Shown here: piece after piece, positions 4,421 through 58,710 of the stretch | Numbering within the stretch: position 1 is the first letter of the stretch | How the letters are laid out: every line of letters starts with the position of its first letter | Source: Alloascoidea hylecoeti | Lineage: Eukaryota | Assembly (NCBI GenBank): GCA_001600815.1 | Contig: BCKZ01000005.1 | Coordinates: 850,875 to 914,874, forward strand | Direction: 5' to 3' | DNA: 64,000 bases | The notes under the pieces: generated by a model | Told to the model about the DNA's origin: nothing | What the model saw: only the letters and a program-made list of their open reading frames with translations | Databases searched by the model: none | Program-made: the position numbers and the translations under genes

Positions 4421-5122
4421 TCAGGCACAGCAGCAAGTGGCTGGTTGATTCTTGAATCTTGAATCGCTTACCAAATCGTATCCAAAGACCATATAACCAA
4501 AAAGTGCACCCAAAATAAGGCAAATGATAATATAACCATTGTAGTACATAGCAAGCAACATAACGAGATAGGCAGCACCGAACTGAATCGCGAACATAAA
4601 ACTAGAAACTATGTGCTTCCAGAAGGCAGGACCATTACCACTTTGAGGTTTTCGGAAGATTCCAATGCTTTTCACAATATTTCCAGATTTCGTATTATCA
4701 ATAGCTTCTTCGGAACTCCCTTCAACTGGAGATTCCCCCACAGCATCTTTGTTTATAGAACTTCGATGAATATAACGATCCCATTCACGTTGTAATCTCT
4801 TGAACCCCTCAAGTGCCATAACAAAAAATATGACACCAAAACAACTACCTATCATCATACTTTTTGAGGTAATGTGCCATTTTCTAGAAATAAAGCAAGA
4901 ATCAATTGTATACCAATTCCATAACATGGAAATTTTACAAGAATTAGAAGAAGAAGAACTCATGGACATTTTGCTTACTATTAGCTTAGGTGAATATACA
5001 TCTGAGGTAGATGTAACTTCTTCAGCTGTAGCTGTTGCTAAAGATGATGAAAGTGACGCAACAATCGATGACAGAGAGGAAACCTGAGCTGAAAGAGATG
5101 ATATTTGATCTGAGTCTGACAT
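4421..5122 (-). CDS. CTR3: High-affinity copper transporter, Ctr3-type
   Basis: CKISMLWNWYTIDSCFI signature, MxxxM (MLLAM) in TM2 followed by YYNG, and a Cys-rich C-terminus (TCCCA). Confidence 0.92.
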   Translation of the reverse strand: MSDSDQISSLSAQVSSLSSIVASLSSSLATATAEEVTSTSDVYSPKLIVSKMSMSSSSSNSCKISMLWNWYTIDSCFISRKWHITSKSMMIGSCFGVIFFVMALEGFKRLQREWDRYIHRSSINKDAVGESPVEGSSEEAIDNTKSGNIVKSIGIFRKPQSGNGPAFWKHIVSSFMFAIQFGAAYLVMLLAMYYNGYIIICLILGALFGYMVFGYDLVSDSRFKNQPATCCCA

Positions 5123-5413: not shown

Positions 5414-5944
5414 TTTAAGCCAAGAAAGGACAGATTTATTATGTTAATGCAGGATAAAAAGAATACAACTAATTCAAACTCCCAACTTTGTAAACAGATC
5501 GGAATTCTCCTTTTGAATTTTGATTAGATGATCTAACATGTATCATCGTGTACTTGCAATTGTCACCTATATATTCATTTCATTCCTTAATTGTAAATTT
5601 TTTTAAGTTTTTTTAGTTATAAACCCAAACAAGATTAACATAATATTAGTAAAAATTAATTGTCCTAAAAATTTAAGTGTCAATAATTAACATTGTTAAT
5701 TGCCTAAACTTGTTGTGTGCTTCTTGGAGATGAGGGTTTTCCAAACCCATCAGTACTTCGGTTCCAATAATTTACTTACTCTTACACTTGCAACTTATAA
5801 TTAACACGGATACATTTTTTTTTTATTTTTTTTTATTTTTTTTTAATAATTGAAGGCGATGAGTAACTAATTAAACTAATTATAAAAGGTCTGAGTCTCC
5901 AATAAGAATAATGTGTAAAAACAAGAAACTTCATCTCCAGATTT

Positions 5945-6390
5945 AATTGAGACCATTCGAATAACTTTCAGCCCGAACAAGATTAAACTGAGGTTTTTCT
6001 TGCTCGTACTATCTAACTTTTACACAACGAACTCTTCTAAAAAAACATAAATATGGAGTATGCTCTGCATGCAAAAGACTTTTTCTGGATATGAAGAACC
6101 AAAGGAACACAATTATATGGTCTAAAGATTTCATGACGTTTGGGATGGTGTTGTATTGAATAACAAAAGTTCAGTCTGTTTCTACGCTCGGTAAAGTATG
6201 TGCTCTACGAAAGTCAGACCCCAGGACTTTAATAATGAAGTCTAGATCTTCACAATCTTATGGTATAGAACTGAAATTTGGAACGGTGCTCGTACTGTAC
6301 TGTTAAGAGCCGGTCTCTAATAATCCATGCCTCGTAGAGTGGCAGCCGTTTATGATAAGGGTGATGACAATCGATACTAAACATAAGATG
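5945..6390 (+). mobile_element. Degenerate Tc1/mariner transposase fossil
   Basis: Ends with SMPRRVAAV..., the Tc1 C-terminal motif. 6322-6344 is identical to 9053-9075. Upstream fragments resemble the Tc1 HTH/linker region. Many stops and deletions; boundaries approximate. Confidence 0.6.
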
Positions 6391-26855: not shown

Positions 26856-27959
26856 ACTTATAACTTTTATTTCAATAATAATTGATAGTCTATAATAGGA
26901 GCTATAGAAACACGAAAACTATTTTTTTTTAGCTGGCGATTAAGCCATGCCAGGTAGTAGTTATTAAAAAGAAAGCGAACCCTTGATCACACTCTATTCT
27001 ATTAGGCACCTTTGTTCACAAGAAGAACTAATAGTTCTTTTGATTTTTACATGGCCAAAATTTAGTTGAATGATTGCATTACATATGCATCAGCTACCTG
27101 CAATTGTCATATATATTTCTAATATTGTAATTTTTGGTTGATGTCTTAAGCTTAAGCTTTTTCAATCTTGTTTATATCTATCTGTAGTAAATTTAAAGTT
27201 TATTGAAATTTTGATAACTTATAGCAACGATATTGCTGAACCCAACTACAGAGGTCATGTATCCATCTGTAAATAGTATTGTGAAAACCTCCGTTAAAAT
27301 AGTTGACTATGCATATGCATATTATTTCTTAAGGTTCTAATTTATGTATTATGTCATAATCATCAAGCCATAAAAAATATAAGGCCCATTTTAAAGTAGG
27401 ATATGATCAATATTTGAAACCCTCCTCCTCTGGTGGAAATGGGCGTCTAGAAGATTGTGACGGTAGATTTTCATTACTCTAGTATATATCATTTTCTTAT
27501 TTGTTATCTTATCCTTAAATTTATAATTGGGGCTTTTATAAAACTGGTAGAATAGGGAGGAAACCTGTTGAAATCAGCTAACCTAAAATGGCTAAGAACT
27601 CTTAGCTTTAAATAATTATAAAATAGCAATATTATTAAGAAACTTTTCAAATAAAGAACTTTTAATCTTAGTAATGCTTATCATTATTCTGTTAAGGAGT
27701 GGTACACTTTTTAGATTATTGCGTCTAGAGTGCAACATAGTGTTGGCCATTCGAGAAGCATTGTTCAATGAGGTCAATATCTGTAAGATTAAAAGTTTGA
27801 CCTTCCGATTTGTTGATGGTCATACTAAAACACGCACAGAAAATTGATTCCTATGACCAGTTATTTAGTACTCTAGAAAGCCTTAAACTGCTCTCAAAAT
27901 AGCACATGTTTCGTAGAAGTTAGGGATTATATTAGTTTATATAAAATGTCATTTTAAGT

Positions 27960-28400
27960 TTAGTACTTAGTAGGCGGTCTTAACCCTGCCACTCTACTTG
28001 ATATGGAGTCAATCAGATCATCAATTATCCGGATCCATGGGATCCCAAGATTTTAAGAGAGACTCAAATAATTGATCTTTTTCCACCTCCTCGCCATTTT
28101 GATCAATAATAACTGCATTGTGGTGTACTTTTAAGGAAGTCCCAAATGCACTCACTCGGATTTAGATCCGGTAAATAAGGCAGCAATTACAATACTTATA
28201 ACTTCTTTTCACAAAGTCACTTCATTATAATTCCAGCTTAGTGGATAAGTGTGCTATCCTGCTTGAATAATCCTATCTTACAAAAATTATATTTAGGAAA
28301 GCGTGATGGCTCCTTTTTTAGTGCTACGGCATTAGGACAGTAAAGTGCTACCACATTTCTAAAATTTCAACCCATACCAAAAGAATTAAAGGTCCTATAA
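27960..28400 (-). mobile_element. Tc1-family (DD34E) transposase fossil
   Basis: Minus strand reads GPLIL, LFKQDSTLIH (D codon 28258), LPYLPDLNPSECIWDFLK (E codon 28153, exactly 35 codons later = D34E), then IDDLIDSISSRVA...TKY*. Confidence 0.82.
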
Positions 28401-28670
28401 TAAAAAGAAGTTCAAAGACCTGGTCTGACTGTTGTTGAGCACCTTATACTTCTCCGGATCCGGATCCTGAACGACCGAACATTCATCACTGAATACATGT
28501 ACAGTATAAGCCTTACACTCTCAAACGTCTCACTCAAATCTATATTTAAATCATATAGGCCTTATAGATTCTGTTTCTTTGATAAGGTGAATTTTTATAA
28601 TTTCTCTTTAGAATTTGGTTAGTCTCATTCCGATAAGGTTTAGGTACTGAAAATGTTTTCTATCTACTTA

Positions 28671-30304
28671 ACAATCAGCTTTAACGGGTCTCTGATCAAG
28701 AAGATATTTATTATAAATAAAGTCTACGATATAAAAGACCCAAACTTTATAAATATTACGGATTCATCAATAGGTTATACCAAAAAAAAGCGTTAAGAAT
28801 AATTTATAAATGAATTATTTTTAGAGTTTGATGATAAAATGAATTATAAGATCTTGTTATATATAAATATATAAAATACAACTATGCTTCTATATCACAA
28901 ACAACTTGATCCATAGCTATAAATATACTTTAAATTTAACACATTGAACAAGAAGAACGTTCATTTTCACAAGTAGTAAGGTCAACAACACCTCCAGTTG
29001 GTGATTGAGCTTTTGCAATACAACTATTGACTTTATCAAGACAAGCATTATACTCTGCTGAATCAGTGTAGCATGAAGTAGAACCTGATGATGTAGCTGT
29101 GGCTGTACTTGCTTTTGTGGCTGTTACGGCTGTGGCACCAGCTGTAGTTGCAGCTGCGGTAGCTGTGTTACTAACATATTGGGTTTGGAAAGTAGTAACA
29201 TCAGTACTTTGCTCGACGGAATATTCAGTATCAACAGCAGCTTGTGCAACAGAAGTAGAAACTTGAGCTTCAGCAGATGTAGTATATGCAGCAGCAGATG
29301 ATGAAGCTGAAGTATCAGCAACGGTACCAGCAGCAGTAGTAGCGGCGGTGTCAGCAGCAGAAGTGGCAGAAGTACTAGTAGCAGCAGCAGAGGTAGCAAC
29401 AGTAGCAGCAGTAGCAGAACCTGAGGATCCATAAACTGTAGGGCCTGGAATAGTATATGTGGTTAAACCGTTGTAGATATTGACAAGGATACCGGGATCA
29501 CTAGCAGAATAAGCACCTGGAAATTTAACACCTTCAGGTTCGGCACTTCCACCACCTGTTACTTCCAAGCTTACACAGAGAGGATAGAATTGTCCTCCAC
29601 CAGATGTTCCTGCACTATGAAGAGCCAAAATTTCATGTCGCATCAAATAATTACCTGCAGAAATGTCCGAGGGAATTGTAACTGTCCATGAGTTGTTGTT
29701 TGCAATTAATGTATCACTAGCCCATGAATCAGAGCTTGCATCATATCCATCTTCATCAATCTTGAAGTATGACAAATCTTGTGGTGTGGCTGCTGAAAAT
29801 TCACCACTGACTGATGCCATGTATGTCATAACAGGACCTTTGTGAGATTCTGGCCAATCTGTCCAATAAAATGTTACAGTTTCACCGGCTGCAACACTAG
29901 CACTGATTCCACCATCAACTGCTCCAACGTTACAAGTAATAGCATCACTGGTTACATCTTCAACCGGACCATTACCACCTGTGAATTTCCAAACAATTCT
30001 ATCAGGAACTGGGGATTTGTAGACATCTTGATATACAAGCCAACCCGTATACCATTCATCGGCAACCTGAAGGTCCTGGACAATTCCATGGCCTGCGACA
30101 TATGATGATAATGCAGCAAGAATTAATTGAGTTCCAAATTTCATAGCTTAGTTTAAGTTTGACTTGTTGAGTGGTGTTGAGTAATAATGAATTTAAAAAT
30201 GAGAGAGAATATACCAGATATTCGAAATAAAAGTGCAAGATTTAATTTCTAACAATTAATCTCAGATAAAATGTTAAAGATAATGAATTCCAAAATAAAA
30301 TCCA
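28671..30304. repeat. Left arm of inverted duplication (partner 32438-34108)
   Basis: Reverse complement of the right arm apart from three indels (7, 10 and 20 nt). Confidence 0.95.
28936..30144 (-). CDS. Secreted AA9 (GH61) lytic polysaccharide monooxygenase with S/T/A linker and C-terminal 6-Cys module, copy 1
   Basis: Signal peptide ending VAG, then His1 (HGIV). WPESHKGPV supplies the second brace His. Also YLMRHEILALH, QFYPLC (axial Tyr) and FPGAY..SDPGI. Intronless. Confidence 0.96.
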   Translation of the reverse strand: MKFGTQLILAALSSYVAGHGIVQDLQVADEWYTGWLVYQDVYKSPVPDRIVWKFTGGNGPVEDVTSDAITCNVGAVDGGISASVAAGETVTFYWTDWPESHKGPVMTYMASVSGEFSAATPQDLSYFKIDEDGYDASSDSWASDTLIANNNSWTVTIPSDISAGNYLMRHEILALHSAGTSGGGQFYPLCVSLEVTGGGSAEPEGVKFPGAYSASDPGILVNIYNGLTTYTIPGPTVYGSSGSATAATVATSAAATSTSATSAADTAATTAAGTVADTSASSSAAAYTTSAEAQVSTSVAQAAVDTEYSVEQSTDVTTFQTQYVSNTATAAATTAGATAVTATKASTATATSSGSTSCYTDSAEYNACLDKVNSCIAKAQSPTGGVVDLTTCENERSSCSMC

Positions 30305-32437
30305 GGGAAATCATTGCTTTTTATACTGTGAAAAGACCGTTTAGTCCTCTATACAATTTATAACATGTACATTTTAGTATTAATTATTGCTGCATTTGTT
30401 CTGCAATAAGATAAATCCTAAGGGTCCGATACTTTTTGACGAGACAATCGTACGATTACGTGCATGATTTGATTACCGAGCCTTTAACCCCCAGATCCCG
30501 AGAAATATAGTGTGATACTATGATTATGTCATATATGTTAGACCTCGTTTCGCAAATTATAGTTATATGTAAAGGTGGTTTGTCACAGTTTCTGCAAGTG
30601 CGTAGAGTGTATGTCTTACTGTCCTGTTTTAGATGTTTGGACATGCATGCAGATATATTGGGGAAGACTATAACATTAATATTGCTGCTTATTTGTTTTA
30701 TTGTAATCGATATAACTTATACAGTTAATCTAGATTCTAGATCAGAGGTATTACATAGTACTTAACGTTTCTAGTACTTTTGTTTCTATTGTATATATCA
30801 ATCAATTAGAAACATTTCCATAGTCTAATACTACTGAAGTATAACTTTTTGTATTTTGCATACTATAGAAAATATTAATATTTTATGTTTAGCTATAGTT
30901 ACAAACTTACAGCCGTAAAAAAAATATAATACCAATACTTTTACGCTTTGTAGATCTAACTTCAATTAAATCCATGATCAGTAGCTATCAGATTCTACTA
31001 TAAGCTTATACCTATTATAGTTGTGTTACAGAGTTATGACAGATTTTCTTTGTCAATACAAGCTTAAGTTTGTTACACAGTTTACTCTGAATTCGCCATT
31101 GGGGATAAATATTTTGTGTAGATGTAGCTACATATATACATATAACTATATAAAAGGTATATATACCAGATCTGATCATTATAATGATAACCGAAGTATA
31201 CATGTATACGTATGCTGTTGTACTTAAGCTTGCAATTGTATAAAAATTTATATCTGATAAAAGTCATACCCATGGATAAACTTGCATAAACGTTGTTGAA
31301 ACCACTACTAAGATTGGTTGTAGAACTTCAGAAAACTAATACGATCGCTATAAATAGGATTGTTCCCTTAAATTGTTTCACATGTCCGTATAACTTCTAT
31401 ATAGTTTATTTCAACGATATGGCGGGAGGTATTAATATAAAAAACCTCTATTTCACAGGCTAGAGAAAAGTAACGAGATAAGTGGACAGATGAATCAGGC
31501 GCACAATTTTAAACCTATAATGATGAAACTCAAGCCGAACGGACCTTTTTAAAAAATTATATAGGCCTATAACTGATAAGAATATTTTTATACTCATAAC
31601 TAAAATGTATATTCATAGTATTTCATATTAAAAAAGCAAATAAATGCAACAACAATCATATATGGCTAGATATCGATAATAGTACTAATATATCACTGTT
31701 ATAATTAACTTTATATGGTTTAAGTTATAGCTATAGGGCTGCCAGTCAATATTATAATTTTTATATTATTTGGAAACATATTTAATTAACATAAATATTA
31801 AATTCTGATGCAGCCATCAATTTCACGTATTAATTAAATAAGTTTTAGCATGAAAGCCAAATAATATATGAAATGCTTTCTAGTTAATATAGACTTAGAT
31901 ATGGTGATCAGAACTACAAGTACTAAAGTTAAGAGATTCAGGATTAGTAACCATCCGTTTTAAAGATATATCAATGATATATAAACTTATTTTACACTAA
32001 ATCTCTAAAAATGTACTAGCGATATGCACATAGCTAAAATTCTGTCATAAACTGCAGCTGCACAACTGGGAGAACAGGCACTTTGAACTTTAACATATAA
32101 TGTTTTAAGAAGTTGCAATTGTGTAACAAAACAATACTGCATTATGCAGGAAAACATTTAAAACTATATATTGTCTTAAATTGACACTTAGAAACGATGT
32201 TTAATAGTTTAACGAGACGACCCTTAGGCCTAGAGATCCAATTACTTATAAAATATTATATAGAAAGATTTAAAGGATCGGGGATGGGTGGTATGATTGT
32301 TTCACTAAAATAATATCGCGGTTTAAAGGCTCGGCATTTAGTTATAGTGAGATCACATCAATTCATTTCGTATGCTGAATAAGTAGTTCTTAGGTTTCTA
32401 ATACCATTTCAAAAAGTATAAAATACAATGGTTTTCT

Positions 32438-34108
32438 TGGATTTTATTTTGGAATTCATTATCTTTAACATTTTATCTGAGATTAATTGTTAGAAATTAA
32501 ATCTTGCACTTTTATTTCGAATATCTGGTATATTCTCTCTCATTTTTAAACTAAAACAAAGTTTTTTCAATTCATTATTACTCAACACCACTCAACACCA
32601 CTCAACAAGTCAAACTTAAACTAAGCTATGAAATTTGGAACTCAATTAATTCTTGCTGCATTATCATCATATGTCGCAGGCCATGGAATTGTCCAGGACC
32701 TTCAGGTTGCCGATGAATGGTATACGGGTTGGCTTGTATATCAAGATGTCTACAAATCCCCAGTTCCTGATAGAATTGTTTGGAAATTCACAGGTGGTAA
32801 TGGTCCGGTTGAAGATGTAACCAGTGATGCTATTACTTGTAACGTTGGAGCAGTTGATGGTGGAATCAGTGCTAGTGTTGCAGCCGGTGAAACTGTAACA
32901 TTTTATTGGACAGATTGGCCAGAATCTCACAAAGGTCCTGTTATGACATACATGGCATCAGTCAGTGGTGAATTTTCAGCAGCCACACCACAAGATTTGT
33001 CATACTTCAAGATTGATGAAGATGGATATGATGCAAGCTCTGATTCATGGGCTAGTGATACATTAATTGCAAACAACAACTCATGGACAGTTACAATTCC
33101 CTCGGACATTTCTGCAGGTAATTATTTGATGCGACATGAAATTTTGGCTCTTCATAGTGCAGGAACATCTGGTGGAGGACAATTCTATCCTCTCTGTGTA
33201 AGCTTGGAAGTAACAGGTGGTGGAAGTGCCGAACCTGAAGGTGTTAAATTTCCAGGTGCTTATTCTGCTAGTGATCCCGGTATCCTTGTCAATATCTACA
33301 ACGGTTTAACCACATATACTATTCCAGGCCCTACAGTTTATGGATCCTCAGGTTCTGCTACTGCTGCTACTGTTGCTACCTCTGCTGCTGCTACTAGTAC
33401 TTCTGCCACTTCTGCTGCTGACACCGCCGCTACTACTGCTGCTGGTACCGTTGCTGATACTTCAGCTTCATCATCTGCTGCTGCATATACTACATCTGCT
33501 GAAGCTCAAGTTTCTACTTCTGTTGCACAAGCTGCTGTTGATACTGAATATTCCGTCGAGCAAAGTACTGATGTTACTACTTTCCAAACCCAATATGTTA
33601 GTAACACAGCTACCGCAGCTGCAACTACAGCTGGTGCCACAGCCGTAACAGCCACAAAAGCAAGTACAGCCACAGCTACATCATCAGGTTCTACTTCATG
33701 CTACACTGATTCAGCAGAGTATAATGCTTGTCTTGATAAAGTCAATAGTTGTATTGCAAAAGCTCAATCACCAACTGGAGGTGTTGTTGACCTTACTACT
33801 TGTGAAAATGAACGTTCTTCTTGTTCAATGTGTTAAATTTAAAGTATATTTATAGCTATGGATCAAGTTGTTTGTGATATAGAAGCATAGTTGTATTTTA
33901 TATATTTATATATAACAAGATCTTATAATTCATTTTATCATCAAACTCTAAAAATAATTCATTTATAAATTATTCTTAACGCTTTTTTTTGGTATAACCT
34001 ATTGATGAATCCGTAATATTTATAAAGTTTGGGTCTTTTATATCGTAGACTTTATTTATAATAAATATCTTCTTGATCAGAGACCCGTTTAATGTTAAAG
34101 CTGATTGT
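32438..34108. repeat. Right arm of inverted duplication
   Basis: 1671 bp versus 1634 bp for the left arm; the difference equals the three insertions. Confidence 0.95.
32628..33836 (+). CDS. Secreted AA9 LPMO, copy 2 (identical protein)
   Basis: The 402 aa translation is identical to 28936..30144. Confidence 0.96.
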   Translation: MKFGTQLILAALSSYVAGHGIVQDLQVADEWYTGWLVYQDVYKSPVPDRIVWKFTGGNGPVEDVTSDAITCNVGAVDGGISASVAAGETVTFYWTDWPESHKGPVMTYMASVSGEFSAATPQDLSYFKIDEDGYDASSDSWASDTLIANNNSWTVTIPSDISAGNYLMRHEILALHSAGTSGGGQFYPLCVSLEVTGGGSAEPEGVKFPGAYSASDPGILVNIYNGLTTYTIPGPTVYGSSGSATAATVATSAAATSTSATSAADTAATTAAGTVADTSASSSAAAYTTSAEAQVSTSVAQAAVDTEYSVEQSTDVTTFQTQYVSNTATAAATTAGATAVTATKASTATATSSGSTSCYTDSAEYNACLDKVNSCIAKAQSPTGGVVDLTTCENERSSCSMC

Positions 34109-34829
34109 AGTACATAAAACTTTAATATACAAATTAAATAGTTATACATCGCTGTTTACAACATTATACCATCACTTGTTTAGTACTGTACTATTGAGTA
34201 GCTGGCTAAACTTACCAATTATAAGGTGACAAGGATATACCAATATTTCATAGGCAGCCCTTACTAATTTCTCTAAACTTCACTAAAGAATCTTCAAATA
34301 TGTTTTCAATTAACTCTCAAATAATTCGCTGATTAACCACCGTACGTATAATTAATTGTGAATTGCTAAAAATATATATAAATTGATTTAATTACATTTC
34401 GGCTACAGGTTAACATCATTTAATTTTAGATTTAATTATAAGAGCGGAATATCGAGAGGATATTTTATAGCTGCCAAATATCTCAAATTTTAAATATTCT
34501 GGTGCCATATTTAGCACTATAATCAATATTAATCATAATACTCGCTTATAAACACAGTTATGTGATATAAAAATAATTTAAATATCCTAGCTCATTATTG
34601 ACAGCCATGATATTAATTAACCCTGCTGGATACCTGCATATAAATAAACGTTTATTATAGACTTAATTAAGAATTTAGGAGTATAAAAACGTTGATACTA
34701 AGACGTATAAGTTATTAGCTATTACTACAATTTGTTAGATATGTGTGGTATTGCATATTGTGCAATAGTGACAATACTACACGATACAAGACTAGCTAGT
34801 ATTTATATCTAATAATATATCTATGATTT

Positions 34830-38855: not shown

Positions 38856-41239
38856 CTAACCATGTAACAATTTAGAAGATAGCGCTTCAAGATCCGCCAA
38901 TGTTTCTGGCTCATCGACCTCAATAATTTTACCACCTTTATCTTTGTTATGTTGGTATTTCTTAGACATCTTAGTTAGTCTTTCATGATCACTTTCGGAT
39001 TGTGATTAGATGCAACACTTGATTGATTGATTAAAATCACAGGACTATCGGTACCATCATTTTCCTCGAGTTCACGAAGTTTTCGTTCAGCTTCCTTTTG
39101 TTTTCTTTTCTTTGCTAATATTTTATCCCTTTGAAGATCTTTATCATCAACATCAGCGGTGATCATCTGTTCAGTTTCTCTTTCAATAAATTTAGCCTGT
39201 TGTTCAGTTGCAGTACCATCAGATTTAAAGTCTTCCTCACCTTTAAGCTCATAGAGAGTAGGGGACTCCATCATCATCAAATATAAGTTTTGTAGGATTT
39301 CCTTTCTCTTTTAAAGAAGCTTTACGAGAAACAGCACGTTTCATGGCCTTATTTGAAGTGGGTAATTCATGTAAATCAGCATCATCACCATCATTTTTAA
39401 CAAGGTTTCGGTAATGTTTCGACAATACATCTTGATTCTTTCTAGGGAATAATATTTGATATTTATCCTTTGGTTGATCATCTTTTTTCTTTCTGATTAC
39501 CACCTTCATCACCTCTTGCAACTACAATAATTTTTCTTGAAGTATTTTTTAATTCTTTACTTCTACTGCCATTTCCTGAAGGTTTTATAATTATTGGTTC
39601 TCCACTTAATCCTAAACTTTCAGCATATTCTTTTAAAGGGATATGATCAACATTAAAAATAGATTTATCATTTTGAGTTAAAATTGATTTATAATATGAT
39701 ATAAGAGCCCTTCGTGCTAAATTTTTATAATCTGGAGCTGACTTATCATCACTCTTTTTAGCACATAGATTGTGTAATTCATTTTTAATTGATTTTTTTT
39801 TTTATCTTTGCAAATTTTTAAATTATTAACTTCAATTTTTTTTCCCTTGAAGTCTTGCTAACATTCCTTACTCTTCGGATTTTGTTAATAATAATAAACT
39901 TTGACCTTTTCTACCAAACCTTGCAGTTCTACCTGCTCTATGAACATAAGTATCAACATCTTCAAACATCTTCTGAGGCATTAACTTGTATTACCCATTA
40001 AACAGGAAAGTCCAAACCTCTCGCAACAATATCAGTTGCTAATAAGCAAGCATGTTCAGCTCTTGAAAACTTTGAAGTTTTTTTTTTTATTCTTCCAGCT
40101 TGTTTCGTGTTTCCATCTAAAGATATTAATGATATACCAGGCTGTAAAGTTTTAAAAGTTTCAAAGACAAATCTAACCTGTTTTGAAGATGAAAAGAATT
40201 CAATCACTTTTGATTTTGTATGACTTCTTATAAAACTATATAAAATATTCAATTTATCTTCAAGATTAACAATTGAATAACTTTGTTGTAAAGATTTTGG
40301 AGTTGCTGAAGTATCTTCAGGAGCTGAAGTTATAAATGATGAATTGATTAAACTTAATCGTGCTAAATCATTAATTGATTTTTGTTGAGTTGCTGAAAAT
40401 AAAAATGTTTGTCTATCAATTGGTAAACTTTCAATAATATTATCCATAGTTTGCTTAAAACCCATATCTAATATTCTATCTGCTTCATCTAATATTAACA
40501 TTTTTAAATTTTTTGTATCAAAATCATGAGATTCAAAAATATCTTGTAATAATCGACCTGGTGTTGATATAATTATATTTAATTTCCCAATTCTTTCTTG
40601 TTCATCTTGATAACTTTTCTCACTTGTTAATAAACTAACAGAAAATGAATGAAATTTACTAATGCTTTTTAAAATATTAAAATTTTGTATTGCAAGTTCT
40701 CAAGTTGGTGATATAATTAAAGCACCCAATCCATCTAATTGTGTCCATTTATTGAGGTATAAAACTTCTAATAACGGCATTAAAAATGCTAAAGTTTTAC
40801 CTGATCCTGTTCGTGCTGCTCCAAGAATATCATGTCCTTTAGGTGATTTGATAATTGAACGTCTTTGGATATCAGTACTTTTTAGAAAATGAGCTCTTTT
40901 TTAAACCTTATAATGTTCCTTTTGATAAAGGAAGATCTGAAAATTGACTTATTGGTGTACTCCCGTTCTTTTTTAAAATTATATTATGAATTTCAACTGC
41001 ATAAACTTAAAAAAGCTACATGTAAAAGTAATATCCGATTAATAAATATCAGCCATCTCACCAAATTCTCTAATTCAAAAAAATATATGAATATTATTAA
41101 AGCCAACCAATAAACTTACAAATTCTTGAATTTTTGTTTCAAGGTCTTTAATAAAATCTTCTTCATTCTCTTTTTTAATCTGTCTTTTAGATAACTTTGG
41201 AGTTGTTTTACTTTTCTGACTTTTTCGTGGTTTTGACAT
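38856..41239 (-). pseudogene. DBP4: DEAD-box RNA helicase Dbp4/Hca4 pseudogene (retains first intron)
   Basis: [64 protein letters not shown] and C-terminal EPETLADLEAL. In-frame stops (TL*GL, SPT*EL) and several frameshifts. Confidence 0.88.
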
Positions 41240-52177: not shown

Positions 52178-54530
52178 TCAATTCAAATTTCTGTATTCTT
52201 CCTCTGTATCACTTTCTTCAATACTTTCAGCTAAAGGAAAGTGAAGTTTACTACTATTTGAACTTCCAATGTTATAATAAATATCTTTTTCTCTATCTCT
52301 TGAAGATTCAATACTTCTAATACCAAAACCAATACTACCATTACTATTATTTGATTCTAAAGTATTTGATCTTCCTCTTCTTTGTGTTGGACTTCCATTT
52401 CCATTTCCAAGTAATGAATTTCTACTTCTTGAAGTAGTTAATCCAAGCATACTTGCAATATCAGGATTTGATTGTATTGCAGTTGATGTATCTTCTCTTC
52501 TATGTGATAAAATTGATTTTGGTGAATGATGACCAGATGAAACTATACCTAAACCTAAACCTGATGATAATCCTGTACCTGATGATGCTCTTGATCTTGT
52601 AGCAACCATTCTAATTTTTCCAGCTTGTGATGTTGATGGTATAAGTGGAGGAGATTTATTAATAACAATAGAATTTCCTGGTGATAATGATAAATGTCTT
52701 AATTTTGGAGTTATTGAAATTCTTTTATTTATTTTTGGTGTTGTTGATGTTGATGTACCACCAGATAATTTAAATGGTTTTATATCAATATCTGTACTTT
52801 CTGTACTTGTTAATGATAATGGAGTTTCAATTGTTTGTTTTGTTGAGTCATTTGAATCATCATTTATTACACTTATATTAAATGTTTCAATATCATTTTG
52901 ATTTTGATTTTGATTTTGATATACATTTTCATTTTCATTTTCAACTGCGGTTGTTTTTTCTAAACTTTTTATTGTTGTTGTTACAGTTGTTGTTTGTAAT
53001 TTTGAATTTATTGGAATTGAAATATGATGTTGTTTTCTAATTGATGAATTAATTAATTTTATTTTTGAAATTTCTTTATTTTCAAATGTTATTAATAAAT
53101 CATTAAATAAATCATTTGTATTAAAAATAATTAAATCATTAATTAATGGTATTAAAACTTTTCTCTTTTCGATTAAATTATTATTATCTTTATTATTATT
53201 ATTAAATCTTCTCATTAATGAATGACCAAAAATTGTTTGATTTGAAAATTTTTTAATTGACTCATTATCAAATTTTTTTAAATCTTCATTATAAAATAAA
53301 AAATTTAAATGTTTAAAAATTATATTTAAAATTGATATATTTATCCAACTTAATTGATAAAATGATTTTTTTAATAAATTTAATCTTTCATTATCATTAT
53401 TATTGTTTATTTCTGTATTATAAATTTTATTAATTTTATCAAATATTGTAAAACTTATTACTGAATCAGGTAATTCTAATAAATATAAAAATAAAATACC
53501 AATTAAATATTTTAAATTTGAATTATTAAATTGTTTAAAAAAATTTAATGAAATTTGATCAATTAATTCATTATTATTACTTTCTTCTGTTGTTGATTTT
53601 GAATCATATTTATTTAAATCTTTTTGAATCATAAATTTAACAAATTTATCTCTTATAATATGAACTTTTTTCAATTCATTTGGTATAATATTTGATAACC
53701 ATGCATTTTTGATTTCATTTTTAACATCTTCTTTATTATTATCATTACTATTATTAATTTTATAATTTAAATAATTCATAATTTCAGTTATTATTAATGG
53801 TATAACATTTGAAATATATTTATCATCATTATTTTTAATTAATTTTATTTTATTTTTATTATGTAAAATAATTAATTCTTCACCAAAACCAATATATTCA
53901 GAATGATTTATAATATCATCATAACCAACAATTTTAAATTCATCTTCATTATTAACATTCAAATCTTTAAAAGTATTTGAATTGGAAGGTAATGATGAAG
54001 AATCATAAAATTTTTTTGTAATTTCTAATCCTGTATTAAAACATCCAGTTCCTTTATTTAATATAAAATCATTTATAATAAATGATGAAGAAATAAATGA
54101 TGATGATTTTAAAATTAATTTAAATTGATCTTCTAATTCTGATGAATTTAAATTATCTTTTAATATATTAATTAATGAATTAAAAGTTTTATTTAAAATT
54201 ATTAATTTTTCATCATTATTAATATTAATTAATTCTTTTGTTTTTTTTAAAATTAAATTTGAAAATTTATTTTTTGTTGACTCTAAACCTAAATATAATG
54301 TATGATATGTTTGACATAAATTTTGCAATTGTTCTTCTTTTGAATTTAATATTGGAGTTTCTGGTATTACTGATTCTGTTAATGTTGAAGCAGTTGTTGT
54401 TAAAGATGATCTATTTGATGATGATGTTGATGATGATGATGATGATGAAAATGAAGAATCTATTGCTGAATCACTTGTTTCACTTGTATTAGAACTGAAA
54501 ACTTCTTTTGTAGAACTAGTTGAAAGAGAT

Positions 54531-54575
<45 letters not shown>

Positions 54576-55753
54576 GTTGAATTAATTGTAAAGCATTTTT
54601 CTAACCAAATATATTTATCATCACTAACAATAAATTTATTTTTACCAACCGATAATTTTTTTAAAAAACCATTTTTAATTAAATCGTTACCAAAATTTTC
54701 ACTAAATGATATTGAAATTGATTCACTACTTGATAAATTTAATAATAGCCATTGATGAATTTCATTTCCTGTTGATACATAATATGATGTATTAACAAAT
54801 GGAATTTTTATAATTTGTTTTGAAATTGTTGATAATAAATTATTAAAAAAATTTGATAATTCTTCTTTTGTATATAAATGATTTGAAATTTCAATTAATT
54901 CAATTTTATTATCTTTTGAAGAATTTGAATTTTCAATTTGTTTATTAATTTTTTCTTGTAATTGTAATTGTAATAAATTTGATTTTAATTTTTTTTTCTC
55001 TTTTAAATTTAATGTTGTATCAGTTTCATTTAATCCTTTAATTTTTTTTTCAGTTTCTTTAACTAATTTATTTAATTCATTAATTTCATCTAATTGATTT
55101 AAAATTAATTCCATTGATGATTCAATTTTAAATTTATATTGATTAGTATTCCATTCATTAAAAGGTTTATAAACTTTTGAATATAATAATTTTGATGTTG
55201 TTAAATGAACAAATGATTCATCTGAAAAAATATCTAATAATGAATCTATTTGATTTCTAATTGTTCCTATGTTGTTATCAGGTTTAATAGTTTCTTTTAT
55301 TTCTTGGTTTTTTTCATTTTCTTTTTGTGGTTGAGTATTCAAAGTTGAAGGAGTTTCAAACATCATTTTTTCAACTTCATCAATATCAAAGTCTTCATCG
55401 TTTAATTCATTTGTAGTTTTTTGTTTAGGAGTATCAATAATTTTCCTTGTTGAAGTTTTATCTTTATTAAATTTACTACTATTAAAGTTTTTATTTTTAT
55501 TTTTATTCTTATTCTTATTTTTATTTTTATTTTTTTGACGTATACGTAATTCTTTTGTATTATTATATGATAGATCCATTAAACTATCGGAAATTTCTTG
55601 TTCATAATCTATTCTTTTTTTAATTAAATCCAATAGATTCTGATGTTGTTTATAATTTAATAAAAGTTGATTATGAAATAATCGAAAATCATCAATTTGA
55701 AATATATAATTATCAGTTGTTGTTTCGGTAGTAATAGTGTTAATTGAGGACAT
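52178..55753 (-). CDS. F-BAR/DEP/RhoGAP protein, Rgd2/Rga8-like, very AT-rich
   Basis: N-terminal coiled coil (IKKRIDYEQE). DEP-like KIPFVNT...STGNEIHQWL...ENFGNDLIKNGFL. RhoGAP-like FGEEL...IPLIITEIM.YL...YLLELPDSVI. Confidence 0.75.
54533..54574. repeat. (ATT)n trinucleotide repeat encoding poly-Asn
   Basis: Direct read. Confidence 0.9.
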
Positions 55754-57119: not shown

Positions 57120-57127
57120 TCACGTGA
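57120..57127. promoter_or_regulatory. Cbf1-type E-box TCACGTGA in SVP26/cys2 divergent promoter
   Basis: Perfect palindrome ~85-90 bp upstream of a sulfur-pathway gene. Confidence 0.55.
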
Positions 57128-57210
57128 TGCCGTTTATTAAGAAAATAAAAATATACTCATCATTTTTCATTCCTCAAATCTTTGTATTTTATACAATATA
57201 TTATTATAAA

Positions 57211-58710
57211 ATGAATATAAATATGTTGAGATTATCAACTGGAAGAAACATTATAAACCGCTGTTCTGGCTCAAGTTTATTTCTAATACGGAATATAAGT
57301 TCTGGCACTGTTATAAGACAATTGAAAAAAGCTCCTCCGATGGATTCAATGGCTTTTCCGTGTTTGGATAAATTGGATGATAGAACTGCTGAATTGACGA
57401 AAAATTGTTCTTTTAACTCAGGACCAGAACCATCATATTCGGATTCTCATGATCCTCCAAATTATCAAGTTTTCACTTCAAATGATCCTTTAATACTTGA
57501 TTATGGCTCCGTTTTAAACTCTTTTAACCTTGCTTATGAAACATGGGGTGAGTTAAATGCTGATAAATCAAATGCAATTTTACTACATACTGGATTGAGT
57601 GCTTCATCTCATGCCCATTCAACAGAATTAAATAAAAAACCAGGATGGTGGGAAAACTTCATTGGTCCTTCTTCTGAATTCCCAATAGATTCTTCAAAAT
57701 ATTTTATTATTTGTACAAATGTTCTTGGTGGTTGTTTCGGTTCATCAGGTCCATCTTCAATAAATCCACAAACAGGTCAAAGATATGCAACTTCTTTCCC
57801 AATTTTAACAATACCTGATATGATTAGAGCTCAAAATAGATTAATTAAAAATCATTTTAAAATATCTAAATTATATGCTTCTGTTGGTGCTTCAATGGGG
57901 GGTATGCAATCTTTAGCATATGCAACTAATTTCCCAAATGAAACTTCAAAAGTTATATCTATATCAGCATGTGCTAGATCTCATCCATATTCAATTGCTT
58001 TAAGACATACCCAAAGAGCTGTTTTATTATCGGATCCTCATTATTCAAAAACAAGAGGGAATTATTATAATTCAATTCCACCACATACTGGTTTAAAATT
58101 AGCAAGAGAAATTGCAACTGTTACTTATAGATCAGGACCTGAATGGGAATCAAGATTCGGTAGAGATAGAGCAAATCCATTAAGAAAACCTGCTTTATGT
58201 CCTGATTTTTTAATTGAAACTTATCTTGATCATGCTGGTGAAAAATGGTGTTTAGAATATGATGCAAATTCATTTCTTTGGATTTCAAAAGCAATGGATT
58301 TATTTGATATGGGTATTAAACAACAAACATTAACTAAAAAGAATCGAAAAAATTCAATAATTTCACAAAATGATTTAGAAAATGAATTAGAAAATGCATT
58401 TCCAATAAATCCAATTGAAGAAACTCCTAGAGAAAAAATCCAACAATTAGAAAAAAATGATATTATAAATGGTTTATTACCAATGTCAAATTTAAAAACT
58501 TTAATAATTGGTGTTGAATCAGATATTTTATTCCCACAATGGCAACAAAAAGAAATTTCTGATACTTTAAAAAAAGGATCAATTTTACAAGGTGGTGATG
58601 GTTCAAATATAAAATTTGTTAATTTAAATCAAGATCAAAGTTGGTATGGTCATGATACTTTTTTATTAGATTTAAAAAATGTTGGAGGTGCTATTAAAGA
58701 ATTTTTATAA
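57211..58710 (+). CDS. cys2: Mitochondrial serine O-succinyl/acetyltransferase (MetX family; S. pombe cys2 / A. nidulans cysA type)
   Basis: Basic presequence, AFPCLD and [17 protein letters not shown] has the serine-type GLS motif. Also GGCFGSSGP, nucleophile GASMGG and [11 protein letters not shown] at 57211. Confidence 0.85.

Follow-up and report, generated by a model that had tools for sequence, protein, structure and literature searches.

An AA9 lytic polysaccharide monooxygenase gene in two identical inverted copies, with a six-cysteine C-terminal module, in the budding yeast Alloascoidea hylecoeti

A 64,000-nucleotide stretch of the Alloascoidea hylecoeti genome (contig BCKZ01000005.1, positions 850,875 to 914,874; hereafter the window, whose numbering is used throughout) carries two divergently oriented genes for AA9 lytic polysaccharide monooxygenases (LPMOs). 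Together with the inverted repeat that contains them, they are laid out as follows:

28658-30327, no strand: left inverted-repeat arm, exact over 28683-30182
28936-30144, minus strand: AA9 LPMO gene, copy A; 402 codons, translation the same as that of copy B
30091-30144, minus strand: copy A, predicted signal peptide
about 29422-30090, minus strand: copy A, catalytic domain
about 29077-29421, minus strand: copy A, Ala/Thr/Ser linker
28939-29076, minus strand: copy A, six-cysteine module
30328-32414, no strand: unique spacer with the two divergent upstream regions; six-frame Pfam search without a match
32415-34119, no strand: right inverted-repeat arm, exact over 32590-34089, upstream region 30 nt longer than in the left arm
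32628-33836, plus strand: AA9 LPMO gene, copy B; 402 codons, Pfam AA9 match
32628-32681, plus strand: copy B, putative signal peptide of 18 residues, called by eye, with cleavage exposing His1; Pfam profile position 1 is residue 19
32682-33350, plus strand: copy B, AA9 catalytic domain with His1 (32682), His83 (32928), His158 (33153), Gln167 and Tyr169 (33186)
33351-33695, plus strand: copy B, low-complexity linker, predicted disordered, in which Ala, Thr and Ser make up 83 of 114 residues
33696-33833, plus strand: copy B, C-terminal six-cysteine helical-hairpin module, residues 357-402; no Pfam match

A preliminary description of the window had claimed two intact, secreted AA9 genes with a histidine brace and a QFY motif, and the open reading frames (ORFs), the Pfam match, the residues and the fold all agree with this, secretion being judged by eye. 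The Pfam AA9 profile covers residues 19-228 (E 4.5e-70; 236 bits against a cut-off of 27.8), and its position 1 falls on His19, the residue that would become His1 on removal of the 18-residue signal peptide, which was called by eye and not by a predictor. The mature protein has His1, His83 (in WPESH), His158, Gln167 and Tyr169 (in QFY), and its copper-site motifs align with the WPESH and QNY of the solved AA9 7OVA; His158 and Gln167 are the second-sphere residue pair of AA9 LPMOs. In an AlphaFold2 model built from a 41-sequence alignment, the catalytic domain is confident, residues 242-353 are disordered (predicted local distance difference test, pLDDT, <50) and the last 45 residues are confident again. 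The predicted fold has the AA9 beta-sandwich and is matched best by 7OVA, 7A8V and 2YET (best E 3.5e-29, root-mean-square deviation 1.6). TaAA9A (2YET) and 7OVA, the best Protein Data Bank (PDB) matches by sequence and fold, have the same copper-site residues, and structures of this type are 46-51% identical to the AA9 here, the solved chains being the catalytic domain only. Judged from these comparisons, both genes are confirmed to be intact and to encode AA9 LPMOs whose copper site is complete. The A. hylecoeti AA9 is without the Cys pair found almost invariantly at alignment positions 112/116, and there is no Pfam CBM_1 match in the protein.

The two genes are arms of one inverted repeat, in which 1500 nt are exact and the identity is 97.3% over 1707 columns when the alignment is extended. 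Indels totalling 30 nt and a few substitutions in a 136-nt upstream segment distinguish the arms, and unique sequence lies beyond each of them. Past the arms we found only a 15-nt upstream match, and the inner and outer scores were reached in 14 and 107 of 300 shuffles, respectively; with homology this weak, recent duplication and gene conversion are indistinguishable, and conversion is not demonstrated. The identical copies most likely stem from one or the other, the perfect identity resting on the assembly. The preliminary description had spoken of amplification: the gene is indeed duplicated, but there is just one identical duplicate, and the whole genome yields two AA9 matches, both in the window.

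Like the identical arms, the six-cysteine module that ends each protein was absent from the preliminary description. Residues 357-402 are predicted to form a helix-loop-helix of ~45 residues (pLDDT about 85-94), in which the columns N366, C368, N373, Q380 and C399 are invariant. The cysteines are gained or lost mostly pairwise among relatives, and sequence comparison suggests disulfides 368-399, 375-392 and 358-402. A hidden Markov model (HMM) of the module, made from 32 aligned rows, found it in 32 of the 120 AA9 matches listed (31 of them in the model) and independently found P0242 (2e-23). The module is common to AA9s of Pezizales, Geotrichum and Agaricomycetes, to two AA16-like proteins and to one non-catalytic protein. 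Among the bearers, both P0242 and Rhizina P0268 have a match at 1e-37 to 7ZE9, an AA16 structure described in PMC10088020, and Rhizina has the module on both an AA9 and an AA16-like protein; P0244 is secreted and bears it without a catalytic domain, and G. candidum P0025 and P0249 end in it. P0241, once considered a bearer, is a repeat protein to which the module HMM gave no match. The module has no Pfam match and no Atlas match, a fold search of the PDB returned generic helices only (best Z 4.3) with no Foldseek match at E 0.001, and a literature search, mostly of open-access text, gave no description of it.

Conserved elements that end disordered Ser/Thr linkers are nevertheless known, namely X283, X280 and X278 (PMC10990093, PMC8615602, PMC10154629; these and all other sources are cited as far as their accessible text extends). 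X283 is described as an RXHAR motif with one dimerising Cys, whereas the hairpin here is a predicted folded module carried by AA9 and AA16-like proteins; X280 accompanies CBM18 and is reported, in the accessible text, solely in AA9, and X278 in AA11. Identity with X283 was rejected, the tail here ending ...ERSSCSMC with six Cys and having no terminal RXHAR preceded by one Cys. Identity with the tail of Cryptococcus neoformans Cel1 was also rejected, that tail being described as unstructured (PMC10166503), a distinction drawn from the description with the sequences uncompared. Set apart from X283, X280 and X278 by their descriptions, the module may already have a CAZy X number.

For the origin of the gene we used the best 120 of 486 AA9 matches. 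The best of these are from Pezizales, and seven rows are from named budding yeasts (five Geotrichum, Myxozyma and Kockiozyma). The preliminary description knew Geotrichum as the sole documented exception among yeasts; this falls, as two Lipomycetaceae, Myxozyma and Kockiozyma, carry the same AA9 subfamily. A literature search, again mostly of open-access text, found no report of a budding-yeast AA9 outside Geotrichum; the per-species CAZyme data of PMC8254220 may already include AA9 for this lineage. Named Pezizales share 65-69% catalytic-domain identity with the A. hylecoeti AA9, named yeasts 55-60% and Aspergillus-type proteins 50-54% (42 of 80 rows); the figure is 58% for P0256 (accession CDO57431, GcLPMO9C) and 59% for a 359-residue G. 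candidum protein with GcLPMO9B's length. Trees were made from 80 rows and then from 49, near-duplicates, fragments and long branches having been removed, and both put the gene inside a well-separated 39-row subfamily without settling its place there. In the catalytic-domain tree, joining the gene to a 16-row yeast-containing group, 7 of whose rows are named, costs 0.65 log units and is not rejected (approximately unbiased test, p-AU 0.233). Trees with the module columns added cover 23 of the 31 module-bearing rows, with groups defined after the trees were seen; here a Rhizina/Morchella grouping has p-AU 0.311. A metagenome scan returned 10 distant AA9 loci and no close relative. Four sequencing runs contain 0.97-0.98 of the locus words, one of them labelled wood decay metagenome, and all are possible sources and not independent; a further run, X5, has a share of 0.07; no RNA run containing the locus was listed in that search.

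That the host is a budding yeast, as the preliminary description had it, is supported by SSZ1: every named match among the best 120 relatives of this one gene is from Saccharomycotina, the top one at about 60% identity. A quick SSZ1 tree of 44 rows puts the host between Nadsonia (with one further row) and a clade of 41 core yeasts, with supports of 100 and 99. Rooted on Nadsonia and holding no Geotrichum, Lipomyces or mould rows, this tree is compatible with a deeper host position, which the best scores, those of core yeasts, argue against. The placement agrees with where the Alloascoidea and Sporopachydermia lineages lie. Ship-timber beetles cultivate Alloascoidea in wood (PMC9171207).

Partner enzymes, which the preliminary description had proposed to seek among CDH/AA3 and GH5/GH45/GH7 (CDH, cellobiose dehydrogenase), are in part present. 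A genome-wide family search reveals a wider cellulolytic kit, with 15 CBM1 matches in 12 genes and seven GH45 genes, all of them single ORFs and six with an N-terminal CBM1. There are 14 GH5 matches, including one CBM1-GH5 gene, which by its motifs we take to be mannanase-like. Two CBM1 proteins, presumably swollenin/loosenin-like, end in a DPBB domain that scores just under the cut-off; tandem CBM1-CBM1-DPBB genes lie at L042:2667-3770 and 5490-6200 (plus strand), with uncertain 5' ends and one N each. Three of the four GH3 genes start without an evident signal peptide, and a GH45/GH5 gene pair lies on contig 14. The genome search gave no match to GH7 or to the CDH cytochrome domain, for both of which the control was also silent, none to glucose-methanol-choline (GMC; AA3) oxidoreductases (control positive in 5 of 14 genomes; the assembly may be incomplete), none to GH10 (control positive in 3 of 14), and for AA16 matched just the two AA9 tails.

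Several further observations concern this gene set. Two secreted CBM1 proteins (L010:1423-2709, plus strand; L012:115-1662, minus strand) share an end domain of ~230 residues with an HExxH-like motif (HELGH/HEVGH); the domain has no Pfam match, and that of L010 no PDB sequence match. At L009:859-1671 (minus strand) a CBM1 is followed by a Ser/Thr stalk and a possible glycosylphosphatidylinositol-type end, with no catalytic domain, and by eye this is a candidate cellulose adhesin. L024, L026, L027, L029 and L030 form an expanded set of similar GH5 genes, presumably exo-glucanase-like, four of the five on contig 15. The motif AAAC-N6-GCA stands upstream of 10 of 15 cellulolytic genes (window, L003-L012, L017, L042) and of 0 of 22 others, a difference equalled in 1 of 500 label permutations; with paralogues non-independent, two start sites estimated and base composition uncontrolled, the count is a weak lead. 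Motifs of the CGG type, regulator sites looked for upstream of cellulolytic genes, are not enriched there.

The left flank of the repeat contains two further features, which bear out the transposon-fossil region of the preliminary description:

27704-27835, minus strand: broken Helitron/PIF1-type helicase remnant; best PDB match Helraiser 7LCC, E 4e-4; dispersed copies
28124-28252, minus strand: broken DDE_3 transposase remnant; Pfam DDE_3 E 0.006, under the curated cut-off; dispersed copies

These remnants were matched by short pieces, a full-length six-frame Pfam scan of the flanks giving no match, and no tRNA genes were found. Segments of the flanks and the spacer recur elsewhere in the genome in 48 degenerate matches (scoring covered 39 of 176 candidates). 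The AA9 genes have a GC content of 0.43 against 0.27-0.32 in the flanks, as the preliminary description had noted, but this fails as a signal of transfer: the GC expected for the protein from codon usage pooled over 13 host genes is 0.430 and that observed is 0.430, so that amino-acid composition accounts for the difference. GC at synonymous third positions (GC3s) is 0.179, inside the 0.032-0.303 span of 23 other genes, and codon usage is host-like. These values give no support to a recent horizontal transfer marked by atypical GC or codon usage, and mould contamination is rejected on the host codon usage together with yeast genes on the same contig. The genes are single ORFs, as described, but their lack of introns is little evidence for transfer, since all seven GH45 genes here are also single ORFs.

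Among the neighbouring genes named in that description, those for Ctr, heme oxygenase and HSP70/SSZ1 were recovered, and the GIC-like gene has no Pfam match and a CRIB-like motif by eye only. The Ctr copper transporter gene (4421-5122, minus strand) is 24 kb from the AA9 genes, a proximity that is probably chance. A dispersed element of ~45 bp at about 32060-32110 has 13 listed matches elsewhere at 90-98%, some in same-strand pairs 230-310 nt apart. The segments 52178-55753 and 57127-58710 are strongly AT-biased (GC3s of 0.03 and 0.09, most neighbours having about 0.2-0.3; 1-kb GC down to 0.14), and 39998-40501 (minus strand) holds a 167-residue DEAD-box helicase fragment, possibly a broken or interrupted copy.

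The closest described parallel is Geotrichum candidum, whose GcLPMO9A-D are likewise budding-yeast AA9s of the same subfamily with a signal peptide, a long C-terminal extension and GH45 partners (PMC5596469, PMC4479816). GcLPMO9A and B cut phosphoric acid-swollen cellulose and xyloglucan to C1 and C4 products, and GcLPMO9A, B and C all boosted wood saccharification; the C-terminal extensions had been removed before these AA9s were assayed (PMC5596469). Geotrichum differs in belonging to another yeast lineage with 4-5 diverged paralogues, whereas here one gene is present in two identical inverted copies; its module has two cysteines instead of six, and GH7, which was not found here, is cited in its secretome (PMC5596469). 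The uncharacterised AA9s of Pezizales (Rhizina P0002, Morchella P0005-P0007) share the three-part layout, the six-cysteine module and 65-69% catalytic identity with the A. hylecoeti protein, but have filamentous hosts and keep the Cys pair at 112/116. C. neoformans Cel1 (PMC10166503) is likewise an AA9 that has a long C-terminal extension and comes from a yeast-form fungus; it is basidiomycete and wall-localised, and was compared by description only.

The best explanation, which we hold with moderate confidence, is that this is an old, host-adapted AA9, most likely retained and then duplicated, that acts as a secreted LPMO nicking cellulose/xyloglucan in an endoglucanase-based system. An ancestral ascomycete AA9 would have been kept while most yeasts lost the family, and the gene would then have been duplicated head-to-head beside transposon debris. 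The secreted enzyme would bind one copper through His1/His83/Tyr169 and, by analogy with the Geotrichum relatives, from which we infer polysaccharide activity, would oxidatively nick cellulose and probably xyloglucan (C1/C4). Nicking would open fibres for the seven GH45 proteins, the CBM1-GH5 protein and the two CBM1-loosenin-like proteins, and the freed oligosaccharides would probably be imported and then split by intracellular GH3/GH5. The enzyme might obtain reductant and H2O2 from phenolics in the wood, from microbes nearby or by an oxidase side reaction of its own, a route other than the usual CDH/AA3 one being proposed because no CDH, GMC oxidase or AA16 was found. The C-terminal hairpin would serve as a binding module on a tether, its most likely task being to keep the enzyme at the polysaccharide surface, and the two gene copies would increase dosage. 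If GH7 is absent, wood walls may be partly eroded and not fully digested. AA16 makes H2O2 that boosts AA9s, and contact between the two has been hypothesised and is unconfirmed (PMC10088020). It is conceivable, though rather unlikely, that the hairpin is a portable anchoring module that places AA9s and H2O2-producing AA16 on one surface, and that the yeast attacks wood by LPMO, GH45 and loosenin with no GH7, CDH or AA3.

Several points weigh against retention of a cellulose-directed enzyme. With no GH7 match (control silent), full cellulose digestion is doubtful; screened yeasts generally show no growth, or poor growth, on cellulose (PMC8254220); and there is a known case of an AA9 acting on the wall of the fungus that makes it (PMC10166503). 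Aromatic residues are few in the module, which in this differs from a flat cellulose-binding CBM; together with its conserved polar residues, this would fit binding to a soluble glycan or protein better than binding to flat cellulose. Alternatively, the enzyme could remodel glucans of the fungus's wall or hyphal sheath, the hairpin anchoring it to the wall and the cellulases forming a separate system. Cryptococcus Cel1 is a proposed precedent for this (PMC10166503), the module is also found at the end of two AA16-like proteins and of a secreted protein with no catalytic domain and so is not tied to cellulose catalysis, and the AA9 lacks a CBM1 although 12 other genes here have one. We nevertheless consider a wall-remodelling role improbable: the closest characterised relatives cleave cellulose and xyloglucan and most yeasts with similar walls are without AA9 (PMC5596469), and here AA9 co-occurs with plant-wall enzymes. 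As for origin, the top catalytic-domain identity is to Pezizales (69%, against 55-60% for named yeasts), and in the trees that include the module columns Rhizina is the gene's sister (85/90, not starred), and tests disfavour a yeast-side grouping (p-AU 0.042, 0.087 and 0.082).

The enzyme could thus have the same role and yet descend from an ancient transfer from a Rhizina/Morchella-like fungus, since ameliorated to host codons, a course of events that we regard as possible but somewhat doubtful. Besides the identities to Pezizales, the top matches among the best 120, and the pairing with Rhizina as sister, with a Rhizina/Morchella grouping that is not rejected, it would account for the distribution of the six-cysteine module, which occurs in 10 of 35 module-bearing rows whose other named members are Rhizina (2), Morchella (3) and Hymenopellis (1), with no named yeast; transposon debris also adjoins the locus. 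However, the gene is in no starred clade of any tree, the catalytic-only test permits a yeast clade, and the groups were chosen only with the trees in view. Identities like these would also result from a slower rate of change in Pezizales or from hidden paralogy; a basidiomycete likewise has the form with six cysteines, which may be ancestral, and the gene carries no compositional trace of transfer. The comparison with other fungi that the preliminary description had called for points both ways, the catalytic domain allowing a yeast clade and the added module favouring the Rhizina pairing. We favour retention from an ancestral ascomycete, with hidden paralogy, while most yeasts lost the gene, because AA9 is spread over three yeast lineages and because there are documented cases of retained ancestral genes grouping apart from other yeasts (PMC4479816). 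A last alternative, that there is a single gene whose second copy or perfect identity is an assembly artefact, we consider very unlikely. The 1500 nt of exact identity might be a shared consensus, but the arms differ by indels and substitutions, each enters unique flanks, and they contain no N, whereas three loci with duplicated genes have some. In the protein collection the longest contig for the AA9 protein is 1622 nt against 13599 for SSZ1, as would be expected from collapse of a two-copy repeat. These indirect signs favour two real copies.

The AA9 locus is a real and uncommon feature, AA9 in yeasts being already known from Geotrichum, and the unnamed C-terminal module is a more original lead than the presence of AA9. 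A third budding-yeast lineage with AA9 implies that the family was lost several times or regained, and A. hylecoeti would be the closest lineage to core yeasts yet seen with AA9. The module is a concrete candidate for a new binding domain, one that was cut off in the Geotrichum AA9 assays (PMC5596469), and a yeast-native LPMO would be a practical part for cellulose-using yeast strains. With one LPMO and no CDH or AA3 found, the system would be a naturally minimal cellulolytic one in which the source of electrons and H2O2 is cleanly testable. If this lineage is among those farmed by ship-timber beetles, it would also offer an enzymatic test of how a crop fungus feeds on wood.

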